Assembly: GCA_963699755.1 (NCBI GenBank)
Contig: CAVOVB010000001.1
Span: 128,001-192,000 of the forward strand
Source of the DNA: an uncultured delta proteobacterium
GTDB lineage: Bacteria; Myxococcota_A; Polyangia; Polyangiales; Houyiibacteriaceae
DNA length: 64,000 nucleotides
Reading direction: 5' to 3'
The notes under the pieces were generated by a model, which ran no database searches, was not told the origin of the DNA, and saw only the letters and a program-made list of their open reading frames with translations. This document shows, in pieces, positions 47,929 through 62,595 of this stretch; within the stretch, counting starts at the first letter, position 1; every line of letters starts with the position of its first letter. The translations under genes were made by a program, and so were the position numbers.

Positions 47929-49812
47929 GTGAGACGACTGCTCTCCGGGTTGTGTTTCGTGTTGAGCGCGTCGCTCTTGTTCGGCTCGGTGCGCTGGGGT
48001 GGTGCGATCGCCCAATCGATGCCGGGCTTCATCCACGTCGATGAAATCCGTCCTGGAATGAAGGGCTACGGCCTTTCGGTCTTTCGAGGCACCGAGCCGG
48101 AGCGCTTTGATGTCGAGGTCATCGACGTTCTTCACGAGTTCCGACCCAATCAGGACATGATCCTCATCCGGACACCCCACCCGCTTCTCGACCGGGCGCG
48201 GGGAGTGGCCGGCATGAGCGGAAGCCCCATTTACCTCGAGGGCCGCCTGGCGGGCGCCTACGCCTATGGCTGGAGCTATGGCACCGACCCTGTGGTGGGC
48301 GTGACACCCATCGCGAACATGCTCGCCGAGCTCAAGCGCCCGGTTCGTCTCGACATGTTCCCAGGAGCCCGTCCGCTCTCGAGTCGGCCGAGCGCCACAT
48401 CGACCCGACGCCTGTCCAAGGAACGGCTCGCTGGCTTGCCTCCGTTCCGCGGGGAGCACGAGGTGACCGCCCTTTCCGCCATTCGTGCGCTACAGCAAGA
48501 AAGAGCCCGCACCGAAGCACCGCTCGGCCTCAGCCGCGCCAGCACGCCGATCATGCTCGGCGGCTTGGATGAATCGGTGGCGCAGATGATCGCCAAGGAG
48601 CTCGAGCCGCTCGGTTTGGTGGCGACGCAGTCGAGCGCAGCTGGAAGCGCGAAAGGAGTCCCAAAACAGTTCGAGGCGGGAGGCGCCATTGCCGTCGAGC
48701 TCGCTCGTGGCGACATCGCCATCACTGGCGTGGGCACCGTCACCTATGTCGACAAGGGAGGCCGAACCCTCGCATTCGGGCACCCGATGATGGACGCAGG
48801 CGCCACCGGCCTTCCGACTGCAACCGCGCGTGTCGTGCACGTTCTGGTCAGCGAAATGCGGTCTTTCAAGATCGCCGAAGCGGCACAGTCGCTTGGCGCC
48901 TTGGTGCAGGATCGACAGCCAGCCATCGTCGTCGACCCAGATATCGAACCGGCGCGCGTCCCCGTGCGCGTGAAAGTGAACGGTGTCGAAGGCGCCCCGA
49001 AGACCGAGTGGCGTGTCGAGGTAGCGAGCCACCGTATGCTCACCCCGATGATCGTATTCACGGTCATCCAGAACGCGATCAAATCCACGGCCAATGACGC
49101 AACCGACGTGATCTTCAGGGCCAGGAGCAAGATCGGCATCGAAGGCCACGGCATCATCTCGCTCGACGAGCAGGGCTTCTCCCCGATGGGCGCCGCCAGC
49201 CCGGCTGTCTTTTCGCAACTTCGGATGTTTGGTTTGATGGAGGCCGCGTTTGCCAACCCCTTCGAGATCTCTCGAGTCACCTCGATCGACCTCGAGCTCG
49301 ATGTCGAAATGAGTCGCGAGGTGTTCCAGATCTCCGATGCCTCGGTCGCCTATGACGAAGTGGACCCAGGCGAAGACCTGGCGATCTACGTAAGACTACG
49401 CCGCGTAAACCAGCCCGATACGATTCGCGCGGTGAAAGTTCGCATTCCCTCGGCTGCAGCCGGACAAACCGTTCGTGTCTCGATTGTTCCAGGGAACTCC
49501 GTAGCAGTCGAACAGCCGCGCGCCGGCTCGCTCGGCGACCTGATTGAGGCGGCAAACCGACGCTATCCAGCGACCTCCTTGGTCGTCGCCCTTCAAATGC
49601 CTACGAGCGGCCTTAGCTTCGAGGGTCACGTCGTCGATTCACTGCCGGCTTCGGCGCTCAACTCGCTCCAATTCGTCAGCGGAACGGAGAACAGCAAGCC
49701 TTTCGTCACGCAGTCGCGCACGGAAATCAAGATGCAGCAGGTGGTGGTCGGCGGCGCAAACCTCGCGCTTCGCGTCCGCGAAGTCGCGCGCGACCAATCG
49801 CTCGGTGAGTAA
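47929..49812 (+). CDS. SpoIVB-like peptidase S55 domain protein, exported
   Basis: Signal peptide; GMKGYG, AGMSGSP, GVTPI, AFGHP. Confidence 0.88.
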   Translation: MRRLLSGLCFVLSASLLFGSVRWGGAIAQSMPGFIHVDEIRPGMKGYGLSVFRGTEPERFDVEVIDVLHEFRPNQDMILIRTPHPLLDRARGVAGMSGSPIYLEGRLAGAYAYGWSYGTDPVVGVTPIANMLAELKRPVRLDMFPGARPLSSRPSATSTRRLSKERLAGLPPFRGEHEVTALSAIRALQQERARTEAPLGLSRASTPIMLGGLDESVAQMIAKELEPLGLVATQSSAAGSAKGVPKQFEAGGAIAVELARGDIAITGVGTVTYVDKGGRTLAFGHPMMDAGATGLPTATARVVHVLVSEMRSFKIAEAAQSLGALVQDRQPAIVVDPDIEPARVPVRVKVNGVEGAPKTEWRVEVASHRMLTPMIVFTVIQNAIKSTANDATDVIFRARSKIGIEGHGIISLDEQGFSPMGAASPAVFSQLRMFGLMEAAFANPFEISRVTSIDLELDVEMSREVFQISDASVAYDEVDPGEDLAIYVRLRRVNQPDTIRAVKVRIPSAAAGQTVRVSIVPGNSVAVEQPRAGSLGDLIEAANRRYPATSLVVALQMPTSGLSFEGHVVDSLPASALNSLQFVSGTENSKPFVTQSRTEIKMQQVVVGGANLALRVREVARDQSLGE

Positions 49813-49819
49813 CGAAACG

Positions 49820-51844
49820 ATGAATAACCCGAAGACCATTTGGAAAATCGCCCTGCTGGGTCTGATGCTCGCCACGAGCGCGACGGTTCGCGCGGTGGGC
49901 ACCGAGAGCTTCGTGCTCGACAGTGCCGAGGCGTTCTTCGAAGGAGAGCTCGACGGCGCTGCGGTTGACTCCGACGGCTCCGTGCGGCCCGGCGCAACAA
50001 CGGAGCGAACCGCGCTCGAAAACGTGCCGCTGGCCTACAGCCTGGCTCAGAGCGGCGGCAGGACCTTCGTCGGAACCGGCACCGCGGGCACCGTTTACCG
50101 GTTCGATGGCAAGCGCGCGGAGGCGTTCGCCAAGACAGGCGAGCTGCTCGTCGCGTCGCTCGCATTTGGCAACGACGGCGCGCTCTATGCCGGCACGCTG
50201 CCCAACGGCCGGATCTACCGAATCGATCCCAAGTCGGGCAAGACGAAGCTCTTCTCGACTCCCGACGGTGCAAAGCACATCTGGGCACTTCGCTACGACA
50301 AGAAGCGTGGCCGTTTGATCGCGGGAACTGGACCCGAAGGGAAGCTGTTTGACATCGACGCGATCGGCCGCGCACGCGTCCTCCACAAGGTCCAGGCGTC
50401 GCACATCATGGCGCTCTCCGGGGACGAGAAGGGCAACATCTACGCCGGCACCAGCGACAGTGCCGTGGTTCTGCGAATCCGCCCGAACGACCGAGTAGAG
50501 GTCGTGTACGATTTCCCTGGAAACGAAGTCACCGCCATCGACTTCTACGATGGCCAACTGGCCGTGGTTTCCAACCAATTCAAGACCGCCCCCGGGACCC
50601 AGTTCAAGGCCTCGGGCGGGAACGCTGGCAACGCGGCACGCCCTCCGACCCGCCCGCGTCCGGGAAGCGGACAAGTTTGGCGCGTCGATGCCGAAGGGCA
50701 CGCCGAGATGTTGGCGAGCCGGAAAGATACCCATTTTGCCTCGGTCCAATGGGGAACCGACGGTGCGATCTATGCCGGTGGCGGACACGAGGGCCGAATC
50801 CTGCGTGTCGAGCCAGATGCGAGCTACTCGATCTGGGTCGACGTGGAGGAGCGACAGGTCCTTGCGCTGGACCTACGCGCCAAAGACCCTTCGTTCGCCA
50901 CGGGCGACGGCGCGGCGCTCTATCGAGTGAAGTCCGCAAAGCGTCGCGATGCGATTTGGACGAGCGAGCCATTGGACGCGAGCTTCGCATCCAAGTGGGG
51001 GCGGCTCACTTGGCGGGGCCGAGGTCGCTTCGTTTTCCAAACCCGCTCGGGCAATACCAAGGAGCCTGGGGAAACCTGGAGCGGCTGGTCGAAGGGCCTC
51101 AAACAGCCGGGCATCGTCTCGAGCCCGGCCGGGCGCTTCATTCAAGTCCGCGCCAAGCTCCCGAATGACGACGACGCGGTCCTTCGCGCCGTGCAGCTCT
51201 TCTACCTGCCACAGAACCAGCGCGCGCGGGTCTCGAACGTCCAAGGCAGCCGACCTCCGCTCAAGCATGCTGAGGCGCAACGGCGGCCAAATCCGCCCAC
51301 GACTCTGCTCAGCCTGAGTTGGAATGTCGATAATCCCGACAAGGATTCGTTGCGCTACCGCATCGCGTATCGCGAAGAAAGGCAGGTGGCTTGGCGCGAC
51401 ATGTTCGCTGAGGACAGCGTGCTGACCGACCCTAAGTACACTTGGGACACCGACAGCATTCCGGATGGATATTACATCGTGCGGGTCGACGCCTCCGACG
51501 AGCAGTCGAATCCGCCGGGGCTCACTTTGCACTCTAGCGCGATCTCGGAGCCTATCCTCGTCGACAACCATCCACCTCGCATCGAGGAGCTCAAGGTTCG
51601 CAACGGGCGCGTGCGCGGCCGCGTCGTGGACGAGCTCGGACCCATCGCGCGCATTCAAATGTCGATCGACGCGGGTGACTGGCGCGACGTTTTCCCAATC
51701 GACTCGCTTCTCGATGACGCCAGTGAACGCTTCGACGTCCCCCTCGGCGATCTCGTGAGCAAGGGCTACATCATCGCAATTCGGGCTTTCGATGCCTCGG
51801 GGAACCAGGCCAACCGCGAAATCACTGCAAGAACCGGCAAGTAG
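49820..51844 (+). CDS. Exported beta-propeller plus Ig/FN3-like protein
   Basis: Signal peptide; repeated YAGT/G..Y blades; TRSGNT..P..TWS; DNHPP. Confidence 0.8.
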   Translation: MNNPKTIWKIALLGLMLATSATVRAVGTESFVLDSAEAFFEGELDGAAVDSDGSVRPGATTERTALENVPLAYSLAQSGGRTFVGTGTAGTVYRFDGKRAEAFAKTGELLVASLAFGNDGALYAGTLPNGRIYRIDPKSGKTKLFSTPDGAKHIWALRYDKKRGRLIAGTGPEGKLFDIDAIGRARVLHKVQASHIMALSGDEKGNIYAGTSDSAVVLRIRPNDRVEVVYDFPGNEVTAIDFYDGQLAVVSNQFKTAPGTQFKASGGNAGNAARPPTRPRPGSGQVWRVDAEGHAEMLASRKDTHFASVQWGTDGAIYAGGGHEGRILRVEPDASYSIWVDVEERQVLALDLRAKDPSFATGDGAALYRVKSAKRRDAIWTSEPLDASFASKWGRLTWRGRGRFVFQTRSGNTKEPGETWSGWSKGLKQPGIVSSPAGRFIQVRAKLPNDDDAVLRAVQLFYLPQNQRARVSNVQGSRPPLKHAEAQRRPNPPTTLLSLSWNVDNPDKDSLRYRIAYREERQVAWRDMFAEDSVLTDPKYTWDTDSIPDGYYIVRVDASDEQSNPPGLTLHSSAISEPILVDNHPPRIEELKVRNGRVRGRVVDELGPIARIQMSIDAGDWRDVFPIDSLLDDASERFDVPLGDLVSKGYIIAIRAFDASGNQANREITARTGK

Positions 51845-51861: not shown

Positions 51862-52914
51862 CTAGGACCGCGTGAAGCGGCCAACCTTGAGCCGATGCAT
51901 GACGGCTAGCTTCTGACGCTCCTTGTAGGCCTGGTGGCTAGCCTCGCCCGCTTCGTTCCTTTCATCGGTCGCGCGATCGAGAACTTGCAGCTCGGTCTGC
52001 ACGAAGATGGTATGCCCTAGCTCCGAAATCCCGTGCGGACCGGCGCGCAGCACCTCGTTTGGGACACGAACCGGAACGTCGGCAACGAAGTGCACGATGC
52101 GATAGCTTGGCGCCGTGAAACGGTTGTCGATCATCGAAAGCCCGTCCTCCAAGTCGAGTGGTAGCTGCAGGTTGGGAATGTGCCTTGCGAGCGCCGGCTC
52201 GGACCGGCAGTACTGGTGGAATCGCGCCAGCGTATTGGTCGACTGACCGGGAATGACGAAGTTGAAGGGTACGATGCTTCGTTGGACGTAGTTCAGAATC
52301 GGAAAGATGTCCCTGTAACTGCGGGTCACGATGCGGAACCGGACTTTGTCGTAGATTTGCGATGCGCTGACGTCGGGCTTCGAAAGAAGCTTGGTGTAGA
52401 GCGAATCCTTGTTCTTGCGCCCGCCAATGAATTCGAGGATCGGAAAGTCGCTGGCCAAGGCTGCTGCCATGACGCGGTAGACCTTCTGCTCCACCCATTG
52501 GAACACCTCTTCGTCCGCGGTCGGCAACAAGAACAAGAGCTCGCGCGCCTCCAGGTGATGGATGATGTGCATCACCTTCAGGATCGCGCAGGCGCAGATT
52601 TGCCGGTGCCCTTTTGCCGAGGCGAGCATCAAGAGGCCCACCAGATCCTTTTTGGCCACCGGTTTCGGAACCGGGAAGTCGAAGTGGCGGCGGAGATAGT
52701 CGATCGCCGCCTCCTTCACGTGCAAGACACGCGCCGTATCACTGGGGTCGTTCGGGTCGATCTCCTGCGCCCGCACAAAGGCGTAGGCCTCGTCCTCATC
52801 GGCAAAGTTGAGCCGATGCCAGTCGACCACTGACCCTCCGCGCAGAAGGACCCGGATTCCCTCGAGGTCGGCCAAGGTCAAATCGTCGAGAGTACGGAGC
52901 TCCGGAATAGGCAC
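51862..52914 (-). CDS. TIGR04552-like RelA/SpoT-type nucleotidyltransferase
   Basis: LRGGSVVDWHRL, RKNKDSLYTKL, IYDKVRFR, ELQV, SHQAYKERQ. Confidence 0.78.
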   Translation of the reverse strand: MPIPELRTLDDLTLADLEGIRVLLRGGSVVDWHRLNFADEDEAYAFVRAQEIDPNDPSDTARVLHVKEAAIDYLRRHFDFPVPKPVAKKDLVGLLMLASAKGHRQICACAILKVMHIIHHLEARELLFLLPTADEEVFQWVEQKVYRVMAAALASDFPILEFIGGRKNKDSLYTKLLSKPDVSASQIYDKVRFRIVTRSYRDIFPILNYVQRSIVPFNFVIPGQSTNTLARFHQYCRSEPALARHIPNLQLPLDLEDGLSMIDNRFTAPSYRIVHFVADVPVRVPNEVLRAGPHGISELGHTIFVQTELQVLDRATDERNEAGEASHQAYKERQKLAVMHRLKVGRFTRS

Positions 52915-52916
52915 GG

Positions 52917-53066
52917 TTAGGGCGCCCGCTCCAAGAGAATGGTGCCGACGAAGATGCCCACGCTGACCAGCAAGACGATCGCGTTGAGCGTAAGCCCGCC
53001 ATGACAGCCACCCATGGCCGTCAGTCCGAGCAGCCCCAGTCCCCCTATCGATCTCCGTCCCAGCAT
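52917..53066 (-). CDS. Small membrane protein/lipoprotein (49 aa), absent from ORF track
   Basis: MLGRRSIGGLGLLGLTAMGGCHGGLTLNAIVLLVSVGIFVGTILLERAP*; ends 2 nt before the next gene. Confidence 0.6.
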   Translation of the reverse strand: MLGRRSIGGLGLLGLTAMGGCHGGLTLNAIVLLVSVGIFVGTILLERAP

Positions 53067-53166
53067 CTCGGGCGCCGCTTTGATACCAGCCGACTGCCAC
53101 TGGCGCTAGTGGATTGAGAAGGGTGATTGCTGGGAGTGTAGATCTCGAATATCATTGGCAAAACCA

Positions 53167-55530
53167 ATGACGGATTCGATCTTTCCCGCTGGCGCCGAGC
53201 CGATTTTGCCGATTTTGCCTCTGCGCAATTCGGTGCTCTTTCCGGCGACGGTCGTGCCGGTGAACGTGGGCAGGCCTCGATCGGTGCGGCTGATCGAAGA
53301 GGCCTGCGGCCGCGAGCGCCCGGCGATCGGGGTGGTGACTCAGCACAGAGCCGAGGTCGAGGACCCCAGCTTTGACCAGGTCTATCAGACCGGCACCATC
53401 GCCCGCGTCTTGAAGGTGATTCGCCTCAACTCGGGTCAGTACAGCGTCGTGCTCCAAGGCGTGAGTCGGATGCGCATCGAGGAGACCCTCGGCCGCCACC
53501 CAACGATGCGCGCCCGGGTACATCGCTACCACGAGCGGCCGAGCGTAGACGTCGAGATCGAAGCCCTGGCCGCACATCTCAGGGAATCTGCACGCCGACT
53601 GCTTCACGACCTGCCGACGGCGTCACGCGAGTCCTTGCACATTCTCGACAATGTTCGCGAGCCAGGCGCCTTGGCCGACCTCATCGAGTCGAACCTGCCA
53701 GTCCCGAACGAGCTCAAACAAGAGGTGCTCGAAACCCTCGACATCCGCGAACGGGTTCGCAAAGTCCTGGATCAGGTCAATCGGCAGAACGAAGTGCTCA
53801 GGGTCAAGCAAGAGATCTCCAACATGGTCGAAGAGGAGATGTCGAGCTCGCAGCGCGAGTACTTGTTACGCCAGCAGGTCAAGGCAATCCGCCGAGAGCT
53901 GGGCGAAACCGATGTCGACGAAGACGAAATCGAGAACCTGCGCGAGCGGATTGCACTCGGCCGACTCCCCAGCGAGGCGGAGGCCGCAGCCAAGCGTGAG
54001 CTGCGACGCATGGGCAACATGAACACGGCGAGCAGCGAATATCAGGTCGCACGAACATACGTGGAATGGCTTGCCGACCTGCCATGGGCAAAGAAGAGCC
54101 CCGACCGGCTCGACGTCTTGCACGCGAGGCAGGTCCTCGATGAAGACCATTATGGGCTCGAAAAACCGAAACGCCGGATCATAGAGTACGTCGCCGTCCG
54201 CAAGCTGCGACGCAATGGGCGTGCACCCATTCTCTGCTTCGTGGGGCCGCCCGGCGTCGGCAAGACATCACTGGCGCGCTCGATCGCGCGCGCTTCGGGA
54301 CGGGCCTACGTTCGCGTCTCGCTCGGAGGTGTGTCAGACGAATCCGAGGTTCGCGGACACCGCCGGACCTATGTCGGAGCATTCCCCGGCCGCATCATTT
54401 CCGGCCTGAAGAAGGCGGGCTTCAACAACCCAGTGATGATCCTAGACGAGATCGACAAGCTCGGCAGGGACCAACGCGGTGACCCCGCCAGCGCTCTGCT
54501 CGAAGTGCTCGACCCTGAACAGAACAAACAGTTCACCGATCACTACATCGACTCGCCGTTCGATCTGAGCAAGGTGATGTTCATCGCCACTGCCAATCAG
54601 AAGAGCACGATTCCTGGGCCGCTGCTCGATCGCATGGAAGTGATCGAGCTCCCTGGCTACACGGCGCGTGAGAAACGCTCGATCGCGCGTGATTTCTTGA
54701 TTCCGCGCCAGCTCAGCGAGCACGGTCTTTCTCCGGAGCGCCTCGATTTCTCGGACGAGGCGATCGACCTGCTGATCGACTCGTACACCCACGAGGCTGG
54801 CGTTCGAAAGCTCGAGCAACAGGTCGCTGCGGTCTGCCGCGCAATCGCGGTTCGGCTCGCCCACGGCGAAGACCTGTCGATCCTGGCCGACCCGCCCTTC
54901 ATCGAGAGCGTCCTCGGCGCCGGACATGCCAAGCGGCAGGAGCCCGAGCGTAGCCCTAGGGCAGGCGTCGCGACGGGCCTGACCTGGACCGCCGCTGGTG
55001 GCGACCTGCTCTTCGTCGAGGCGACCCGCATGCCAGGAACGGGCAAGCTCCATCTCACCGGCAACATGGGCGATGTCTTGAAGGAGTCGGCCGCGGCGGC
55101 GTTCACCTTCGTGCGTGCACGTGCAGGGGAGCTCGGCCTCGCGGAGGATTTCGTGAGTCACACCGACGTCCACGTTCATCTCCCGGCGGGGGGCGTACCC
55201 AAAGACGGGGCCGCGGCGGGTGTCCCGCTCTTCGTGGCGCTCGCCTCCGCGCTCACGCAGGTCAAGGTACGACCAGACGTTGCGATGAGCGGCGAGATCA
55301 CCCTTCGTGGGAATGTGCTCAAGGTCGGTGGCATCAAAGAGAAGTGCCTGGCCGCGCACCGTGCCGGCGTCGCGCGAATCCTTCTTCCGAAGCGAAACGA
55401 GCCAGACCTCGAAGATGTGCCGGACGAGGTCCGCGGCGACCTCGAGATCTGCCTGGTGTCCCGGGTTGAAGAGGTGCTGAATCTGGTCGCCGCCTTCGAG
55501 CCGGCCGGGACGCCCGCAGCCGCCGAATAG
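53167..55530 (+). CDS. lon: Lon (LonA) AAA+ protein lacking the catalytic serine
   Basis: LPLRNSVLFP N-domain, GPPGVGKT, ILDEIDK, PKDGAAAG (canonical PKDGPSAG), GGIKEK. Confidence 0.93.
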   Translation: MTDSIFPAGAEPILPILPLRNSVLFPATVVPVNVGRPRSVRLIEEACGRERPAIGVVTQHRAEVEDPSFDQVYQTGTIARVLKVIRLNSGQYSVVLQGVSRMRIEETLGRHPTMRARVHRYHERPSVDVEIEALAAHLRESARRLLHDLPTASRESLHILDNVREPGALADLIESNLPVPNELKQEVLETLDIRERVRKVLDQVNRQNEVLRVKQEISNMVEEEMSSSQREYLLRQQVKAIRRELGETDVDEDEIENLRERIALGRLPSEAEAAAKRELRRMGNMNTASSEYQVARTYVEWLADLPWAKKSPDRLDVLHARQVLDEDHYGLEKPKRRIIEYVAVRKLRRNGRAPILCFVGPPGVGKTSLARSIARASGRAYVRVSLGGVSDESEVRGHRRTYVGAFPGRIISGLKKAGFNNPVMILDEIDKLGRDQRGDPASALLEVLDPEQNKQFTDHYIDSPFDLSKVMFIATANQKSTIPGPLLDRMEVIELPGYTAREKRSIARDFLIPRQLSEHGLSPERLDFSDEAIDLLIDSYTHEAGVRKLEQQVAAVCRAIAVRLAHGEDLSILADPPFIESVLGAGHAKRQEPERSPRAGVATGLTWTAAGGDLLFVEATRMPGTGKLHLTGNMGDVLKESAAAAFTFVRARAGELGLAEDFVSHTDVHVHLPAGGVPKDGAAAGVPLFVALASALTQVKVRPDVAMSGEITLRGNVLKVGGIKEKCLAAHRAGVARILLPKRNEPDLEDVPDEVRGDLEICLVSRVEEVLNLVAAFEPAGTPAAAE

Positions 55531-55533
55531 TCC

Positions 55534-57822
55534 GTGGCGAGCTCATTCATGTTTCGGCTGAGCGCAGTGTTTGCGGCCATCGTCGGTCTAGCGCTCGCCT
55601 TCGTCCCGCTGCTCGCGGTCCATGGAGTGGAAAGTGCCCTCGCACTCGGCCTCCTCCTTCCCCCTTGGGTGGCCGCGACGGCAGCAAGCTACACCGAGCG
55701 ACACCGCAGGACCCGAGGCATCGACCTCATGTTTGGTTCGATGGGCATGGGCCTGCTGATTTGGTCGATCCCCGTCCTGCTCCTCGCCCTGAGCTCGCTG
55801 CGTGTTCGGCAATGCGCGCCGGGCGAAGGTCTGGCCTTCATGGTGCTCGGCCCGGCCCTCGGCTGCACGCTCGCAGCCGGCATCGGCGTCTGGGTCGCCG
55901 CGACGATAGCTCAGCCCCGGCTCAGTCCGTGGCTTGCAGCCGCAATCCCAATCGGCTCGGCGCTGTTTGGACTTTGGGCATTCTACTCGACTCCAACCGT
56001 CTACCTGTTTGGGGCTTTCGCAGGGTATTTCCCCGGTGCGATCTACGACGATCTCGTCCAGATCCCGAACCGTTACCTCAGCTACCGAGCGACGATTCTC
56101 GTCGCTGTGCTCGCGCTTGGCGTCCTCTTCGATGCGCTCTGGGACCCGTCCTCCGGCACACTCGAGCTTCGAGCTCGTGGCCGCGTGCGGCTTGGTGCGA
56201 TTGCGATCTGCCTTGGAGCACTTGGCATCGTTGCCGCGTCGTATTGGCAGGGCGACCAGCTGGGACACTCGGTAAGCGAAAAGTATTTGGTCGAGCGCCT
56301 CGGTAAGACCGAGCAAGGGCGGCACTGCATCGTTCACATGCCGCGCGAAACCCTACCCGCGGACGCCAGCCGCTTGCTAGAAGACTGCGACTTCAACGTC
56401 GAGCGCATCACAACGCTCGTCGGCCTCTCGTCGAGCGAACCGGTGACCGCCTACTTCTTCCGCAACCAGGGCGAGAAGAAGGAGCTCATCGGCGTTGGGC
56501 GCACGCTGATCGCCAAGCCCTGGCGACGCGAGGTCTATCTGCAGATGTCGGGCTGGCCGCATCCGGCGCTCGGACACGAGATTGTGCACGCTCTGCTCGA
56601 AGAGGCTGGACGCGGGCCTTTCGCCATCGCAGCAACACTGGGGGGTCTCATTCCGAACCCTGGTATCATCGAGGGCGCTGCTGTCGCCCTCGCCTGGGAC
56701 ATTCGCGACGACCTCGACCCCGACCAATGGTCGAGGATCATGATGGATCGCAACGAGCTTCCGTCGGCGGACGATGTCATGAGCGTTCGGTTCAGCGCAC
56801 TCCCGGCACGGCGCGCGTACATGGCCGCGGGATCGTTGATTCGCTTCCTGATAGTGACCCGCGGGATGGACCGATTTCTCGAAACCTATCGACGTGGCGA
56901 GGTCGACGACTTGCGGGAGCTCGAAGCGGAGTGGAAAGCGTACCTCGCGGAGGTTCCGGTGACGGCGCAGGAGCGTGCTGTAGCCGAGGTCGAGCTTGCG
57001 AGGCCGAGCCTCTTCTCGGCGGTTTGCCCCCACGAGCTGGCGAAGCTTCGCGCCGACCTAGCAGGCGATGCCGCAGCACAAGACGACGTACGTACGATCG
57101 AAACCTGTCGCGCCATCCTCGACATCGACGCACACGATGCCCAGGCGCAGGCCGTATTGGTGGGCGCCCTTGCCCGTAACGGACACGACGCCGAGGCGCT
57201 GGCCGTGCTCGACGCACTTCGGGCCGCCATGAATGCGCCGAAGCCGATCGTCGCTGCCGCTCTCGAGCAGTACGCCGATGCGAGCTGGACCCTTGGCAAC
57301 TTGGAGGAGGCCGGAGCGCTTTACGAGGAGCTCCTGAGCATCCCGCGCACCGACGGTGCCGCGCGCCAAAGCGAAGTCAAGAAGCTCGGCCTCGGAGCGA
57401 CCGATACGGAGCGCATGCTTATCTACGAAATGCTCGTCGGGCGGTCGCCGAGCGCGGTCGTGATTCACTTGGCACAAGCGCTGGCGACGATTCGCGGCGA
57501 CGGCCTTGGACAGTATCTCGAGGCGCGGCAACTCATTGGTCAGAACCGGTACGCGCTCGCACTTCCCCTACTAGAGGACGCGAAGCGCCTTGGGCTACCG
57601 AGCCTGCGTCTCGAGCAGGAGCTGAGCCGCCTCTTGGGAATCACGTTCTTTGCGCTTGGCGACTTCGGCAAATCTGCCGCGGCCTGGCGGGAGCGAATGG
57701 AAATTAGCCGGGCCTCCCATGCGGAAGGGCAGCTTTGGCTCGAACGCATCGACTACGCGCGGACAGGGGGGGTCAGTCCGGTGTTGCCAGGTCCATCGTC
57801 GGCTCTCCAAGCTGCGCCTTGA
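55534..57822 (+). CDS. Multi-TM membrane protein with gluzincin (peptidase MA-like) and TPR-like domains
   Basis: ~7 hydrophobic segments; HEIVH...IIEGAAVA; helical C-terminus. Confidence 0.75.
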   Translation: MASSFMFRLSAVFAAIVGLALAFVPLLAVHGVESALALGLLLPPWVAATAASYTERHRRTRGIDLMFGSMGMGLLIWSIPVLLLALSSLRVRQCAPGEGLAFMVLGPALGCTLAAGIGVWVAATIAQPRLSPWLAAAIPIGSALFGLWAFYSTPTVYLFGAFAGYFPGAIYDDLVQIPNRYLSYRATILVAVLALGVLFDALWDPSSGTLELRARGRVRLGAIAICLGALGIVAASYWQGDQLGHSVSEKYLVERLGKTEQGRHCIVHMPRETLPADASRLLEDCDFNVERITTLVGLSSSEPVTAYFFRNQGEKKELIGVGRTLIAKPWRREVYLQMSGWPHPALGHEIVHALLEEAGRGPFAIAATLGGLIPNPGIIEGAAVALAWDIRDDLDPDQWSRIMMDRNELPSADDVMSVRFSALPARRAYMAAGSLIRFLIVTRGMDRFLETYRRGEVDDLRELEAEWKAYLAEVPVTAQERAVAEVELARPSLFSAVCPHELAKLRADLAGDAAAQDDVRTIETCRAILDIDAHDAQAQAVLVGALARNGHDAEALAVLDALRAAMNAPKPIVAAALEQYADASWTLGNLEEAGALYEELLSIPRTDGAARQSEVKKLGLGATDTERMLIYEMLVGRSPSAVVIHLAQALATIRGDGLGQYLEARQLIGQNRYALALPLLEDAKRLGLPSLRLEQELSRLLGITFFALGDFGKSAAAWRERMEISRASHAEGQLWLERIDYARTGGVSPVLPGPSSALQAAP

Positions 57823-58663: not shown

Positions 58664-59197
58664 TTACTCGCGCTGGTTCACGGCGAAGCTGACGTTGCCG
58701 TAACCCGCGGCGGCAGCCGAGAACATGACCTTCTTCACGACTCGGAAGTCGATGTTGCGGTCCGCCTGCACGATGACTTGGCCTGCGAACGGCTCCGATG
58801 GATGAATCGTCTCCCACTTCCGCTTCTCCGTTTCGAGACCGGCAATGAGTGGTTCGATTCGGTCGACCTGTGCGGACTGCCCCTGGGTCTGAGTGTCGGC
58901 AACCCGGGTGCCATCGAGCGTAATCACGCGTTCGTCGACGGCAATGATTGGCGAGATTTCGATCTGCGCGGTGTTCTTCGCATCCGGCATCGTGATGGTG
59001 GGCTGCTGCGCGACCAGCTCGCCCGAAGCGGAGAACGACATGAGCAGGAAGATCACGAGGACGATCAGGAAGTCGATGAACGGAATGAGCGGAATCTGGT
59101 GGTCCACCGACTTGCGAGCATGACCCGAGACGCGGTCACGCACGAACTTCAGCGGAATGTGACGGAGCAGCTCTGGTTCTGGCCGTTTGATCGCCAT
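58664..59197 (-). CDS. ExbD/TolR family protein
   Basis: LIPFIDFLIVL TM with Asp; QADR...VKKVM. Confidence 0.9.
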   Translation of the reverse strand: MAIKRPEPELLRHIPLKFVRDRVSGHARKSVDHQIPLIPFIDFLIVLVIFLLMSFSASGELVAQQPTITMPDAKNTAQIEISPIIAVDERVITLDGTRVADTQTQGQSAQVDRIEPLIAGLETEKRKWETIHPSEPFAGQVIVQADRNIDFRVVKKVMFSAAAAGYGNVSFAVNQRE

Positions 59198-59206
59198 GGT
59201 TTCCCC

Positions 59207-59698
59207 CTACAGGAACGCAGCTCCGTCGGCCATCGACAGGGTGGTGAAGCCCGCCGCAGCCGCGACATCCATTGCACGAATGACGTCCTCATACCGAACG
59301 CCGTCTTCGGGTGCGACGATCAAGTCGTCCCGCTTGTCCCAGGCCTGCTTCCATTGCCCAAGCTTGGTTTGCAACTCGTCGAGGTCGAACTCCTTCTGGT
59401 CGGCTACGGCGCGCTTGCTGATGTCGATGCTCTCCCCTGCGGAAGACCCCAGCACATAGCCGGAGTTCCGCACCTGCAGGATGAGCTTCACTTTTTCGTC
59501 CTCGGGGGGTGCATCTTCGGTCGAAGCCTGCCCCGGAACCTGCTGGTTGGCGTTCAGCGCGGCGAGCTGGTTCCAAACAGCGGTGGCCAGCAAGAACATG
59601 ACGCAGCAAAGCAAGAGGTCGATGAACGGAATCAGGGGGATCTCCTGATTGACCGACTTCTTCCCGGAGTTGCCTCCGCCACTATCGATTGCAGCCAT
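59207..59698 (-). CDS. ExbD/TolR family protein
   Basis: LIPFIDLLL TM with Asp; YEDVIRAMD. Confidence 0.9.
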   Translation of the reverse strand: MAAIDSGGGNSGKKSVNQEIPLIPFIDLLLCCVMFLLATAVWNQLAALNANQQVPGQASTEDAPPEDEKVKLILQVRNSGYVLGSSAGESIDISKRAVADQKEFDLDELQTKLGQWKQAWDKRDDLIVAPEDGVRYEDVIRAMDVAAAAGFTTLSMADGAAFL

Positions 59699-59706
59699 TG
59701 GGCCCG

Positions 59707-60357
59707 TTACTCCGCGGGAATGTTCTGAAGGTCGACCTTAGAGCGGTTACCGACGACGAGGTTGAGAACCTGCACGGTAGCCGCGTTGATGTCGTCGATG
59801 ATCTTCTGGGTCTTGCCGTTGAGAAGGCCCATCATCAGAAGCGCAAAGACCGCCGTAATGAGACCGAACGCGGTACAGTTCATCGCTTCCTCGATGCCCT
59901 TCGCCAAGCCCGTTGCCTTGCTGGCGGCATCGGCTTTGGCGACTTCACCGAACGCTGTGATGAGACCTACAACCGTTCCAAACAGACCGCAGAGCATGCC
60001 AACGTTTGCAAGCAGACCGAGGTACGGCGTGCGCCGTTCGATCAGCGGCAGCTCTTTGAGCGCAGCTTCATCCATGGCCGCCTGAACTTCAGCGTCGGGG
60101 CGGTTCACCTTGAGCAAACCCTGCTTGACGATGCGCGCGAGCGGATTGTGCTCGGCCGAGCAAACCTTGATCGCGCCCGCCACGTCGCCGGCGGTGATGC
60201 ACTTCTGCATCTTTGCGATGAACTCGTCCTTGTCGATCGACGCTTTGTAGAGATACATCGCTCGCTCGATCGTGAACCCGATTGAGAACACCAGACAAAT
60301 GAGGATTAGCCACATCGCCCATCCGCCTGCTTCAAAGTGGTATGCCAAACTGGCCAT
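59707..60357 (-). CDS. MotA/TolQ/ExbB proton channel protein
   Basis: GLFGTVVGLITAF, EAMNCTAFGL. Confidence 0.93.
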   Translation of the reverse strand: MASLAYHFEAGGWAMWLILICLVFSIGFTIERAMYLYKASIDKDEFIAKMQKCITAGDVAGAIKVCSAEHNPLARIVKQGLLKVNRPDAEVQAAMDEAALKELPLIERRTPYLGLLANVGMLCGLFGTVVGLITAFGEVAKADAASKATGLAKGIEEAMNCTAFGLITAVFALLMMGLLNGKTQKIIDDINAATVQVLNLVVGNRSKVDLQNIPAE

Positions 60358-60790
60358 TTCTTACTGCCTCCTGCGAACTTTACTTCGACAGTGTTATCCG
60401 GACCCCGAGTGAGTACGGGTCGATCCCCAGCACTGTCTTCTGACTAAAACTCGCTGTTCCCCCCAGAACAATAAGCAATTCCGTAGCTTGCTTACTATAT
60501 AAGGATGATAACGGTTGGATCCAGCAAGTCAACATCGTGCCCGGCTCAGGTCCTTAGAAACCAGGACCCGCGCTGAGCTTGGGTTCGAAAGCCGGAAAAA
60601 GCTGTAGTCGCGTTGACAACTTCGCGGGGGCTGGGTTAGCTTGCCCCTCGATCAAGGGGTGCGCCCCGACAGTCGTAATGATTTCAACGGATTCCAGCTT
60701 TCGGGGTCCGAATTTCAGTGTGGCTGAAGGGTAGCGAGAGACCAGGGGTTTTCTCGTCGAATCAACGGCGAGCCGGAGGGAGCCGCAAGC

Positions 60791-61423
60791 ATGCATGAAA
60801 TCTGGGAGGCGATGTACGAGGGGTTCCCCTTTTCGTTCATCAATCTCGGTGTTTTGGCTTTTGGGGTGGGCATCATCATCGATCGCGCCTGGTACATCCG
60901 GATGAACTACAGCGTCGATGCGACCGAATTCATGAACCGAATTCGCAAGCTGGTGCAGGCGGGGAACATCGATCGCGCGATTCGACAATGCGAGGCGAAG
61001 GCCGTGCCGCTGCTCGAGGTGGTGAAGTCCGGGCTGACGCAGGTCAACCGCGGCGAGGAAGCCGTAATCGCTTCGATGGAAGAAAAGATGAGCGAGGTGA
61101 TCCCTGCACTCGAGAAGCGCACGGGCGCCCTCTGGACCCTAGCCAACATCGCCACCTTGATCGGGCTGCTCGGGACGATCAGCGGTCTCATTCGTGCCTT
61201 CAAGGCGGTCGGCACCATCGACGACCCTTCGCAAAAAACCGCGCTGCTCTCGGCCGGTATCGCAGAGGCCATGTGGAACACCTTTCTCGGTCTTCTGATC
61301 GCGGTGATCTTCATGGTTGCTCATCTGGTGCTCCATGGGCTCACCAAGCGGCACAAGCACGAGATGGAAAAGGTCACGATGCAGCTCGAGAATCTGCTCA
61401 CGCTGCGCCGGCAAGGCGGTTGA
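60791..61423 (+). CDS. MotA/TolQ/ExbB proton channel protein (AglR-like)
   Basis: GLLGTISGLIRAF, GIAEAMWNT. Confidence 0.93.
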   Translation: MHEIWEAMYEGFPFSFINLGVLAFGVGIIIDRAWYIRMNYSVDATEFMNRIRKLVQAGNIDRAIRQCEAKAVPLLEVVKSGLTQVNRGEEAVIASMEEKMSEVIPALEKRTGALWTLANIATLIGLLGTISGLIRAFKAVGTIDDPSQKTALLSAGIAEAMWNTFLGLLIAVIFMVAHLVLHGLTKRHKHEMEKVTMQLENLLTLRRQGG

Positions 61424-61435
61424 TCGGGCTCAGCC

Positions 61436-61993
61436 ATGCCCGCACGACTAACCCCACGCCAACGAGCCTACGTCCGGAAGCGAACCCGCATTCCCGACCT
61501 CGATCCGTCCGAGACGAGTGACGAGCTGAACATCGTTCCGTTCTTGGATATCGTCGTGAACATCGTCATGTTCTTGTTGATGACCTTGACCACGATCGCT
61601 TTCTTCTCGCAGGTCGAAGCGGCACTTCCCGAGTATCGCAAGGGTGGCATCGGCAAGCGCGCAGCAGCGGATGAGGCGCTCAACTTGAACGTCACGGTGA
61701 CGCGTGAAGGGATCGTCGTCTCTGGCTCGGGCGGCAAGCTCGCGCGGGGATGTACGACCACTGCACCTGGCAAGGTCATCACCGTACCCGCAGGGATGAA
61801 CGGCGAGCACGACTGGAAAGCACTCACCACCTGTGTCCGTCGCGTGAAGGAGCAGTTCGAAGACGAAACCCGGGTCACGCTCAGTGCTGACCCCGAAGTT
61901 CCGTATGAAGACCTGATCGCAGCCATGGACGCTGTCCGCGGCGACGAGAACGACCTCTTCCCGGAGGTGTTGCTCTCTGCGGGGATTCGATAG
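61436..61993 (+). CDS. ExbD/TolR family protein (AglQ-like)
   Basis: ELNIVPFLDIVVN; YEDLIAAMD. Confidence 0.9.
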   Translation: MPARLTPRQRAYVRKRTRIPDLDPSETSDELNIVPFLDIVVNIVMFLLMTLTTIAFFSQVEAALPEYRKGGIGKRAAADEALNLNVTVTREGIVVSGSGGKLARGCTTTAPGKVITVPAGMNGEHDWKALTTCVRRVKEQFEDETRVTLSADPEVPYEDLIAAMDAVRGDENDLFPEVLLSAGIR

Positions 61994-62595
61994 TGGCAAC
62001 CGAAAGCACTAGGCCGTCACGCCCGTCGATCGCACCTCCCGTCGCGGAAAAGTCCGTTTCGATGTCGTATGTGAACCGGGTCGTGCGCGCCAAGCTGCGT
62101 CGCCGCGGCGAGCCCGAGCACTTCGGGCTCAACATCTACCCGATGATGGACATGCTCACGATCCTCCTGGTCTACATGATGGCGATCTTCGCGACGTCGT
62201 CAGCGGCGGCTGTTCAAGAGAGCAGCGAGCTGCGCATCCCCTACTCCACCTCGAAGGTCGAGCTCAGCGACGCACTCTCGGTTCAGATTTCGCGCAGCGG
62301 GGTGGTGGTGGATGGCAAGTCGGTGCTCGAGCTTCGCAATGGCATCGTCGACCCGAGCCTCAAGCAAGGCGGCAGCAGCGGCTTTTTGATCATGCCCCTC
62401 TACAAGGCCCTCAGTGAAATCCGCGACCGGAAGAAGCGAACGGCACAGCGCTTCGCAAACCAGCCGTTCGTCGGTGACGTCCAGATCATCGCAGACAAAC
62501 GAACCCCGTACCGAACCCTGAGCGAGGTGATTTACACTCTCGGGCAGACCGAGTTTAAGAATTTGCGGTTCGTGGCTAATAAGAAAACGCAGTAG
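61993..62595 (+). CDS. ExbD/TolR family protein (AglS-like)
   Basis: LNIYPMMDMLTIL; IADKRTPY. Confidence 0.9.
   Translation: MATESTRPSRPSIAPPVAEKSVSMSYVNRVVRAKLRRRGEPEHFGLNIYPMMDMLTILLVYMMAIFATSSAAAVQESSELRIPYSTSKVELSDALSVQISRSGVVVDGKSVLELRNGIVDPSLKQGGSSGFLIMPLYKALSEIRDRKKRTAQRFANQPFVGDVQIIADKRTPYRTLSEVIYTLGQTEFKNLRFVANKKTQ

Follow-up and report, generated by a model that had tools for sequence, protein, structure and literature searches.

What does a complete Lon protein do once the serine with which Lon cuts its substrates has been replaced by alanine? This question is raised by a gene in a 64,000-nucleotide stretch of DNA from an uncultured delta proteobacterium of the order Polyangiales (the window, which means the whole of the stretch analysed). 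At 53167..55530 on the + strand, a single open reading frame encodes a full-length LonA paralogue of 787 amino acids, and its translation (53167-55530) runs from end to end with no stop codon and no frameshift. Lon cuts by means of a Ser-Lys dyad, and residues P678 and E706 of the enterobacterial enzyme are described as contacts that help to keep the loop bearing the serine in the active conformation (PMC7239648).

The gene and its active site

The 787-aa protein scored 916.5 bits against the LonA model TIGR00763 (cut-off 608), and Pfam domains were assigned to it as follows: N domain (residues 14-206), AAA+ (356-493), lid (518-568) and Lon_C (579-773). With N domain, AAA+ and Lon_C in one chain, it belongs by descent and architecture to LonA (MEROPS S16). 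All the motor motifs of LonA are present on the + strand: Walker A (54244..54267), pore loop 1 with Tyr402-Val403 (54370..54375), Walker B with Asp427-Glu428 (54445..54450), and sensor-1 Asn477, the arginine finger Arg489 and sensor-2 Arg547 (54595..54807). These residues (K366 of Walker A, D427, E428, Y402, V403, N477, R489 and R547) are each invariant in 76/76 genomes carrying an orthologue, and the motor, of which a first-pass annotation of this DNA had called the Walker motifs intact, is intact in all of these genomes.

At 55201-55221, the DNA encodes K-D-G-A-A-A-G. Two adjacent residues are changed here (55210..55215, +; codons and alignment): Ala682 (codon GCC, 55210-55212) stands where normal Lons have proline, and Ala683 (codon GCG, 55213-55215) where they have the nucleophile serine. 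PKDGAAAG was aligned by HMMER, without gaps, onto PKDGPSAG of PDB 7p6u and also onto PKDGPAAG of PDB 7ypj, the engineered S678A mutant. The first-pass annotation had read both substitutions from the sequence, together with intact Walker motifs, a retained dyad lysine and an unbroken frame, and in all of this it was right. The lysine in question is Lys726 (55342..55344, +), the general base of the Ser-Lys dyad; it lies 43 residues downstream of the serine position, as it should in an active LonA, and is lysine in 74/76 orthologues and arginine in 2/76. The alignment also reveals two further changes in the cleft, Thr708 to Ser and Pro719 to Lys (55288..55323, +). The PKDGPSA motif with its nucleophile serine, given as the mark of an active LonA (PMC2605481), is absent from the 787-aa protein, which has PKDGAAAG with Ala683 instead. 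Judged by its sequence, the Ala683 protein is a LonA in ancestry and domain layout that lacks the feature by which an active LonA is defined.

Other identities were considered and rejected. LonB has an [E/D]GDSA motif and no N domain; LonB models scored far below cut-off with the Ala683 protein, in which an N domain is present. RadA/Sms and BrxL were rejected on the basis of their model scores (31 bits vs a cut-off of 403 for TIGR00416 and 55.5 vs 628 for TIGR02653). A monomer model of the protein has its domains correctly folded, with a pTM of 0.35 that is too low for active-site geometry.

Authenticity of the substitution

Contigs from two public DNA runs belonging to different studies (the best-matching of which could be the source sample itself) span the motif, with no listed difference at it. 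The contig from run X1 covers 54788-55482 with 0 differences, and that from run X2 covers 54980-55723 with 3, at 55125, 55530 and 55568; the runs containing matching DNA are sediment metagenomes, and runs in which its share was small were set aside in judging the habitat. The motif reads AAAG in 17/24 loci from the genus and ASAG in 7/24, and the reading frames are open in these 24 loci. Among the 120 closest database proteins, the nucleophile position is occupied by Ala in 83 and by Ser in 37, and the proline position by Ala in 120/120. Neither of the signs of a pseudogene that were sought, a broken frame or a dN/dS near 1, was found. The estimated assembly contamination of 9% might be taken to favour a sequencing error or a decaying pseudogene, but the chance of either is negligible in view of the genus orthologues, the matching contigs from other runs, the four distinct alanine codons found among orthologues, the open frames and a dN/dS of about 0.03. 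The substitution, which had been put forward for checking against reads and orthologues, is therefore natural. The gene may be transcribed in nature, as one 198-base contig identical to it was found in an estuary metatranscriptome (RNA run X18, 11/30 bins), giving neither level nor strand.

The other Lons of the genome

The source genome (G000) encodes three full-length Lons, the other two of which read PKDGPSAG; the Ala683 protein is referred to below as the third Lon. Normal Lon A is 53-54% identical to it and is encoded at a separate locus, beside a two-component pair. Normal Lon B is 44% identical to it, and its neighbours, named from their translations, are probably clpX, clpP and the trigger factor gene. 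The number of lon paralogues, which had been left to be counted, is thus two more, both with the normal motif, so normal proteolysis is covered in this genome. Several Polyangiales genomes have a fourth, patchily distributed LonA with a normal motif (L048-L050, L273, L274, L281, L282, L296).

Distribution of the family

The orthologue set comprises 76 genomes, drawn from the genus and the order, that group as one clade in a tree of 155 rows. The trees of the family were quick or FastTree ones; excluded from tree and counts were duplicates, rows with fewer than 600 aligned residues, a frameshifted locus, a split locus and the unpublished G132/L139. Of these genomes, 42 have Ala at the nucleophile position, 32 have Ser and 2 have Gly, so that 44 lack the serine. 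P682 is kept in 43/76, S683 in 32/76 and T708 in 30/76, and the full GPSAG motif in 10/76. The 26 members of the genus have Ala (18) or Ser (8) at the nucleophile position, preceded in 26/26 by Ala in place of the proline that is P678 in the enterobacterial enzyme. In sister lineages belonging to three further families of the order, the motif is mostly normal (Ser in 17/17 drawn rows), and many of these orthologues are at the same locus. Some sister-lineage orthologues standing apart from the main clade depart from this: four have Ala at the serine position (L057, L086, L107, L111), and three have an altered PKDG loop with the serine kept (L192, L316, L319).

No orthologue was found outside the order when the genomes of the phylum that were searched were queried with the Ala683 Lon. 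None of the best matches from other orders exceeded 57% identity, and inspection of 9 loci showed them to be nearer to the normal paralogue and to have a normal motif. Among the genomes searched, the third Lon thus appears to be restricted to Polyangiales. A search of plasmids yielded ordinary Lons only, at less than 60% identity.

The motif was also sought in 185,579 species genomes, as a LonA-type motif with a codon starting with C or G at the serine position. The pattern is strict and misses, for example, GPAMG, so the 77 loci recovered are a lower bound: 57 belong to the main clade, 4 to a sister subgroup with a separate loss of serine, 1 is frameshifted (with the same two neighbours), 14 are scattered through other groups, singly or in pairs, and 1 is not a Lon. 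This suggests that the third-Lon family of Polyangiales is the main natural home of serine-less LonA. The scattered examples (L096, L097, L071, L075, L084, L117, L126) come from Alphaproteobacteria, Chloroflexota, Bacillota and Bdellovibrionota; L096 and L097 have further cleft changes in common and may constitute a second small natural group.

History of the serine

On a tree from which the protease domain had been excluded, at least 12 changes between serine and non-serine states are required, a count that is blind to whether serine was lost or regained. A single serine-less clade was rejected: when the 18 serine-less rows of a 45-row subset were constrained to one clade, the p-AU was 2.6e-5. 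The idea, raised in the first-pass annotation, that serine loss might define a clade under purifying selection has consequently to be divided. Purifying selection is borne out (dN/dS of about 0.03); serine loss as the mark of a clade is contradicted by the roughly 12 changes, by the AU result and by the serine of 8/26 genus members.

The codons used for the serine bear on its history. AGY encodes the catalytic serine in 18/18 genus sequences of Lon A and 17/18 of Lon B (one B row being another paralogue), and, across the order, in 15/16 A-type rows and 13/17 sister rows. The serine-bearing members of the clade use TCN in 25/32 cases, and in 8/8 within the genus. Alanine is one base away from TCN and two bases away from AGY. 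The site, we infer, was at one time in a non-serine state, for which alanine fits, and now toggles between two small residues; members with a serine may have regained it from alanine. If the site does toggle in this way, the serine-bearing members need not be active. The codons fall short of proof, because TCN is also found in 4/17 intact sister orthologues and related sequences do not count as independent cases.

Selection and constraint

Values of dN/dS were obtained from codon models for 15 genus genomes with all three paralogues; they are only approximate, since kappa was fixed at 1 and the synonymous sites approach saturation (pS about 0.6). For the Ala683 Lon, they were 0.025 (N domain), 0.031 (AAA+) and 0.035 (protease domain), against 0.016, 0.017 and 0.013 for normal Lon A and 0.022, 0.031 and 0.017 for normal Lon B. 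Constraint on the protease domain of the third Lon is relaxed, with a dN/dS still far below 1, and the relative rise is the largest of its domains. Against a relaxation specific to the protease, the values for the N domain (0.025 vs 0.016) and AAA+ (0.031 vs 0.017) are also above those of the nearest normal Lon.

Amino-acid difference between genomes at the active site is 0.105 for the third Lon, vs 0.026 and 0.034 for the normal Lons. Across the 76 genomes, S683, A684, T708, P719, G721 and E725 have changed repeatedly. Sites that are near-invariant in 34 canonical relatives have undergone a mean of 4.43 changes in the protease domain (69 sites) and 1.46 in AAA+ (126 sites); the same class of sites in the linker before AAA+ has undergone 4.53 changes per site (19 sites), so fast change is not confined to the protease. 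Residues of the fold core and of contacts (G600, W607, E618, H669, H671, G685, E710, L713, R714) barely change, with at most one change each at E618, H669, H671, G685, E710, L713 and R714. As these residues are kept, the protease domain seems to be retained as a structure. The clade is marked by relaxed constraint over the entire catalytic cleft, not by the loss of serine.

Probable function

The most likely job of this protein is threading without cutting, given that its motor and pore loop are invariant and its N domain normal, while the cleft drifts. We lean, if only slightly, towards the Ala683 Lon being a non-degrading hexameric, ATP-driven unfoldase or remodeller that threads its clients and releases them uncut. 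Normal proteolysis has very probably been lost in the Ala683 protein, and its ATPase in all likelihood works. The third Lon would assemble as a hexamer, its protease domain being kept as a ring-forming scaffold, and clients would be driven by ATP through the intact motor and pore loop and released without being cut. The constraint on cutting would have been lost early in the clade, and the clients would be specific proteins rather than bulk damage. Replacement of the Lon nucleophile by alanine abolishes proteolysis and leaves hexamers and ATPase in place. E. coli Lon S679A is reported to be inactive and hexameric (PMC8244335), and human LONP1 S855A to retain an ATP-dependent anti-aggregation activity (PMC8368198).

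The chances are about even that this extends to the whole clade as a dedicated pseudoprotease Lon of Polyangiales, in which cutting was lost early and only specific clients are remodelled, the members with a serine, regained from alanine, being inactive too. Lys726 is nevertheless kept, serine is present in 32/76 genomes and the full motif in 10/76, which speaks against an unfoldase-only reading, and some members of the clade may still cut.

A role as a regulatory subunit is unlikely, but deserves to be weighed. The third Lon would in this case form mixed hexamers with the closest normal Lon (54% identical) and contribute its N domain for substrate choice or damped proteolysis. LONP1 S855A is reported to be dominant negative through mixed oligomers (PMC8368198). 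The protease-ring contact residues are conserved in the third Lon, and the nearest normal Lon type is also encoded in 10/10 clade genomes checked, where it is 79-87% identical to the one in G000; this type is order-wide in the genomes searched, however, so its co-occurrence is uninformative. The two paralogues are moreover just 53-54% identical and occupy separate loci, and the complete motor of every member is what a hexamer working on its own would require.

It is also unlikely that the protein is a trap, a holdase or a DNA-binding ATPase, which would hold clients or DNA rather than unfold and release them. E. coli S679A Lon reportedly sequesters SulA, and this was counted in favour of a trap. 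Inactive Lon mutants are described as stabilising their substrates (PMC6098112), and RadA and BrxL as using a non-catalytic Lon-like domain within DNA-binding machines (PMC10164562). The invariant pore loop, Walker B, sensors and arginine finger of the third Lon point instead to cycling translocation, for which a passive trap has no use, and its N domain is the substrate domain of a normal Lon.

A weak or conditional protease, which would rely on the serine in some members or on another nucleophile (Ser708 or Cys727) in the Ala683 Lon itself, is improbable, even though the dyad lysine and the serine of 32 members are kept and Cys727, which adjoins that lysine, is common in the clade. The Ala683 protein offers no hydroxyl where the nucleophile should be, and bulky or charged residues are found in the cleft of its relatives (Met, Leu, His or Gln at 684, Arg or Lys at 719, Asp or Glu at 721). 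Position 727 is a core position, occupied by Val or Leu in normal Lons, and we know of no alternative nucleophile in LonA.

Neighbouring genes

The lon gene is followed, 3 bases past its stop codon, by a gene (55534..57822, +) for a 762-aa membrane protein with an HEXXH...E gluzincin-like domain and TPR repeats. The model of this protein (pLDDT 90) has seven N-terminal helices, five of which were called by a hydropathy scan, a collagenase-like gluzincin domain and TPR repeats; it matches collagenase-type gluzincins weakly (E 2e-4), and the protein has no Pfam or NCBIfam match above cut-off. HEXXH and the downstream glutamate are kept in 147/148 alignments. Arginine-rich loops after helices 2 and 6 suggest that the soluble part of the protein is likely to face the periplasm.

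This peptidase gene follows lon at 97/106 clade loci (in 3 of the 9 exceptions the flank is shorter than 400 bases), which, with the conserved HEXXH and glutamate and the gluzincin match, might suggest that the third Lon supplies the motor of a split, FtsH-like machine and passes substrates to the membrane peptidase. Such a machine is very improbable. The peptidase gene also lies beside intact-motif lon orthologues (13/21 sister loci), and the family occurs in 70/121 Myxococcota genomes searched, widespread without an adjacent lon: no lon was found within 1.5 kb of it at 10/10 loci outside the order, nor in G085, G104 and G027. The peptidase domain would also sit in the periplasm, if the topology predicted for the 762-aa protein is correct. 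In G027, the two genes that flank lon elsewhere are adjacent with no lon between them; since these neighbours are kept without it, lon is dispensable in some lineages. Neither neighbour is an obligate partner of lon, and the synteny proves orthology, not a joint machine.

On the other side, a divergent gene (51862..52914, -) encodes a TIGR04552 family protein of 350 aa with a weak match to a RelA/SpoT region; it flanks lon at 89/106 clade loci. It is single-copy in G000, and its likely start is the GTG at 52914, not 53100. We take its conserved residues to resemble RelA/SpoT nucleotidyltransferase motifs. The Myxococcus TIGR04552 protein MXAN_4858 is reported to be encoded near gliding genes and to have a modest developmental phenotype (bioRxiv 10.64898/2026.08.28.747804). 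Comparison within the genus revealed a conserved 49-aa hydrophobic ORF (52917..53066, -) before the TIGR04552 gene, which ends two bases before the start of that gene; it is the longest ORF of the region in 24/26 genus loci, and similar ORFs occur at 4 loci in two other families. Between the divergent genes (53080-53160) are two short non-coding motifs conserved in the genus, at about 53081-53090 and 53128-53153, which are probably promoter or operator elements. Further upstream, 47929-51844 (+) encodes a SpoIVB/S55-like protein and, after it, a large protein resembling a beta-propeller; 17 bases separate this stretch from the end of the TIGR04552 gene. Two divergent clusters are present at 58664-62595, each made up of one TolQ/ExbB-like gene and two TolR/ExbD-like genes, none of which reaches its family cut-off. 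Their arrangement resembles the layout of the myxobacterial Agl gliding motor.

Significance and comparison with known systems

The open-access literature searched, which leaves most subscription papers outside the scope, yielded no account of a conserved family of full-length LonA proteins without the serine; a 2008 survey that lists 2 inactive homologues among 117 Lons (PMC2605481) may bear on novelty. A chaperone-like activity of Lon as a real biological job has so far been argued from engineered mutants, and a natural, selected, full-length LonA without its nucleophile would be a direct test object for it. Material for comparison exists in the predicted active sister orthologues at the same locus and in a graded series of natural cleft states. 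Annotation pipelines label the family 'endopeptidase La', although the catalytic residue is absent in more than half of the sampled members. If the proposed unfoldase function is correct, the third Lon would be a naturally occurring equivalent of the laboratory-made S679A mutant, and the ClpB or FtsHi of the Lon family.

The third Lon has the N-AAA+-protease architecture, motor motifs and dyad lysine of bacterial LonA (E. coli Lon, T. thermophilus Lon of PDB 7p6u, M. xanthus BsgA/LonD), and is 46-48% identical to the solved bacterial LonA structures. Unlike a normal LonA, it has alanine in place of the serine and of the preceding proline, is changed at Thr708 and Pro719, and is an extra copy beside two normal Lons. 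Plastid FtsHi and ClpR/inactive ClpP are likewise AAA+ protease paralogues without catalytic residues, and serve as motors or structural subunits; they belong to other protease families, and FtsHi is membrane-bound. The engineered mutants E. coli S679A (PDB 6u5z), Meiothermus S678A (PDB 7ypj) and human LONP1 S855A have the same substitution at the same position, and the oligomers reported for S679A (PMC8244335) and the ATP-dependent activity reported for LONP1 S855A (PMC8368198) survive it. Unlike theirs, the state of the third Lon is natural, has been kept by selection across an order and is accompanied by further changes in the cleft. RadA/Sms and BrxL also have a Lon protease fold described as lacking the catalytic motif (PMC10164562), but they differ in their N-terminal and ATPase modules and act on DNA. 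The LonC of Meiothermus, a Lon without one of the two activities, is the mirror case, being reported as a protease without ATP-powered unfolding (PMC3391209).
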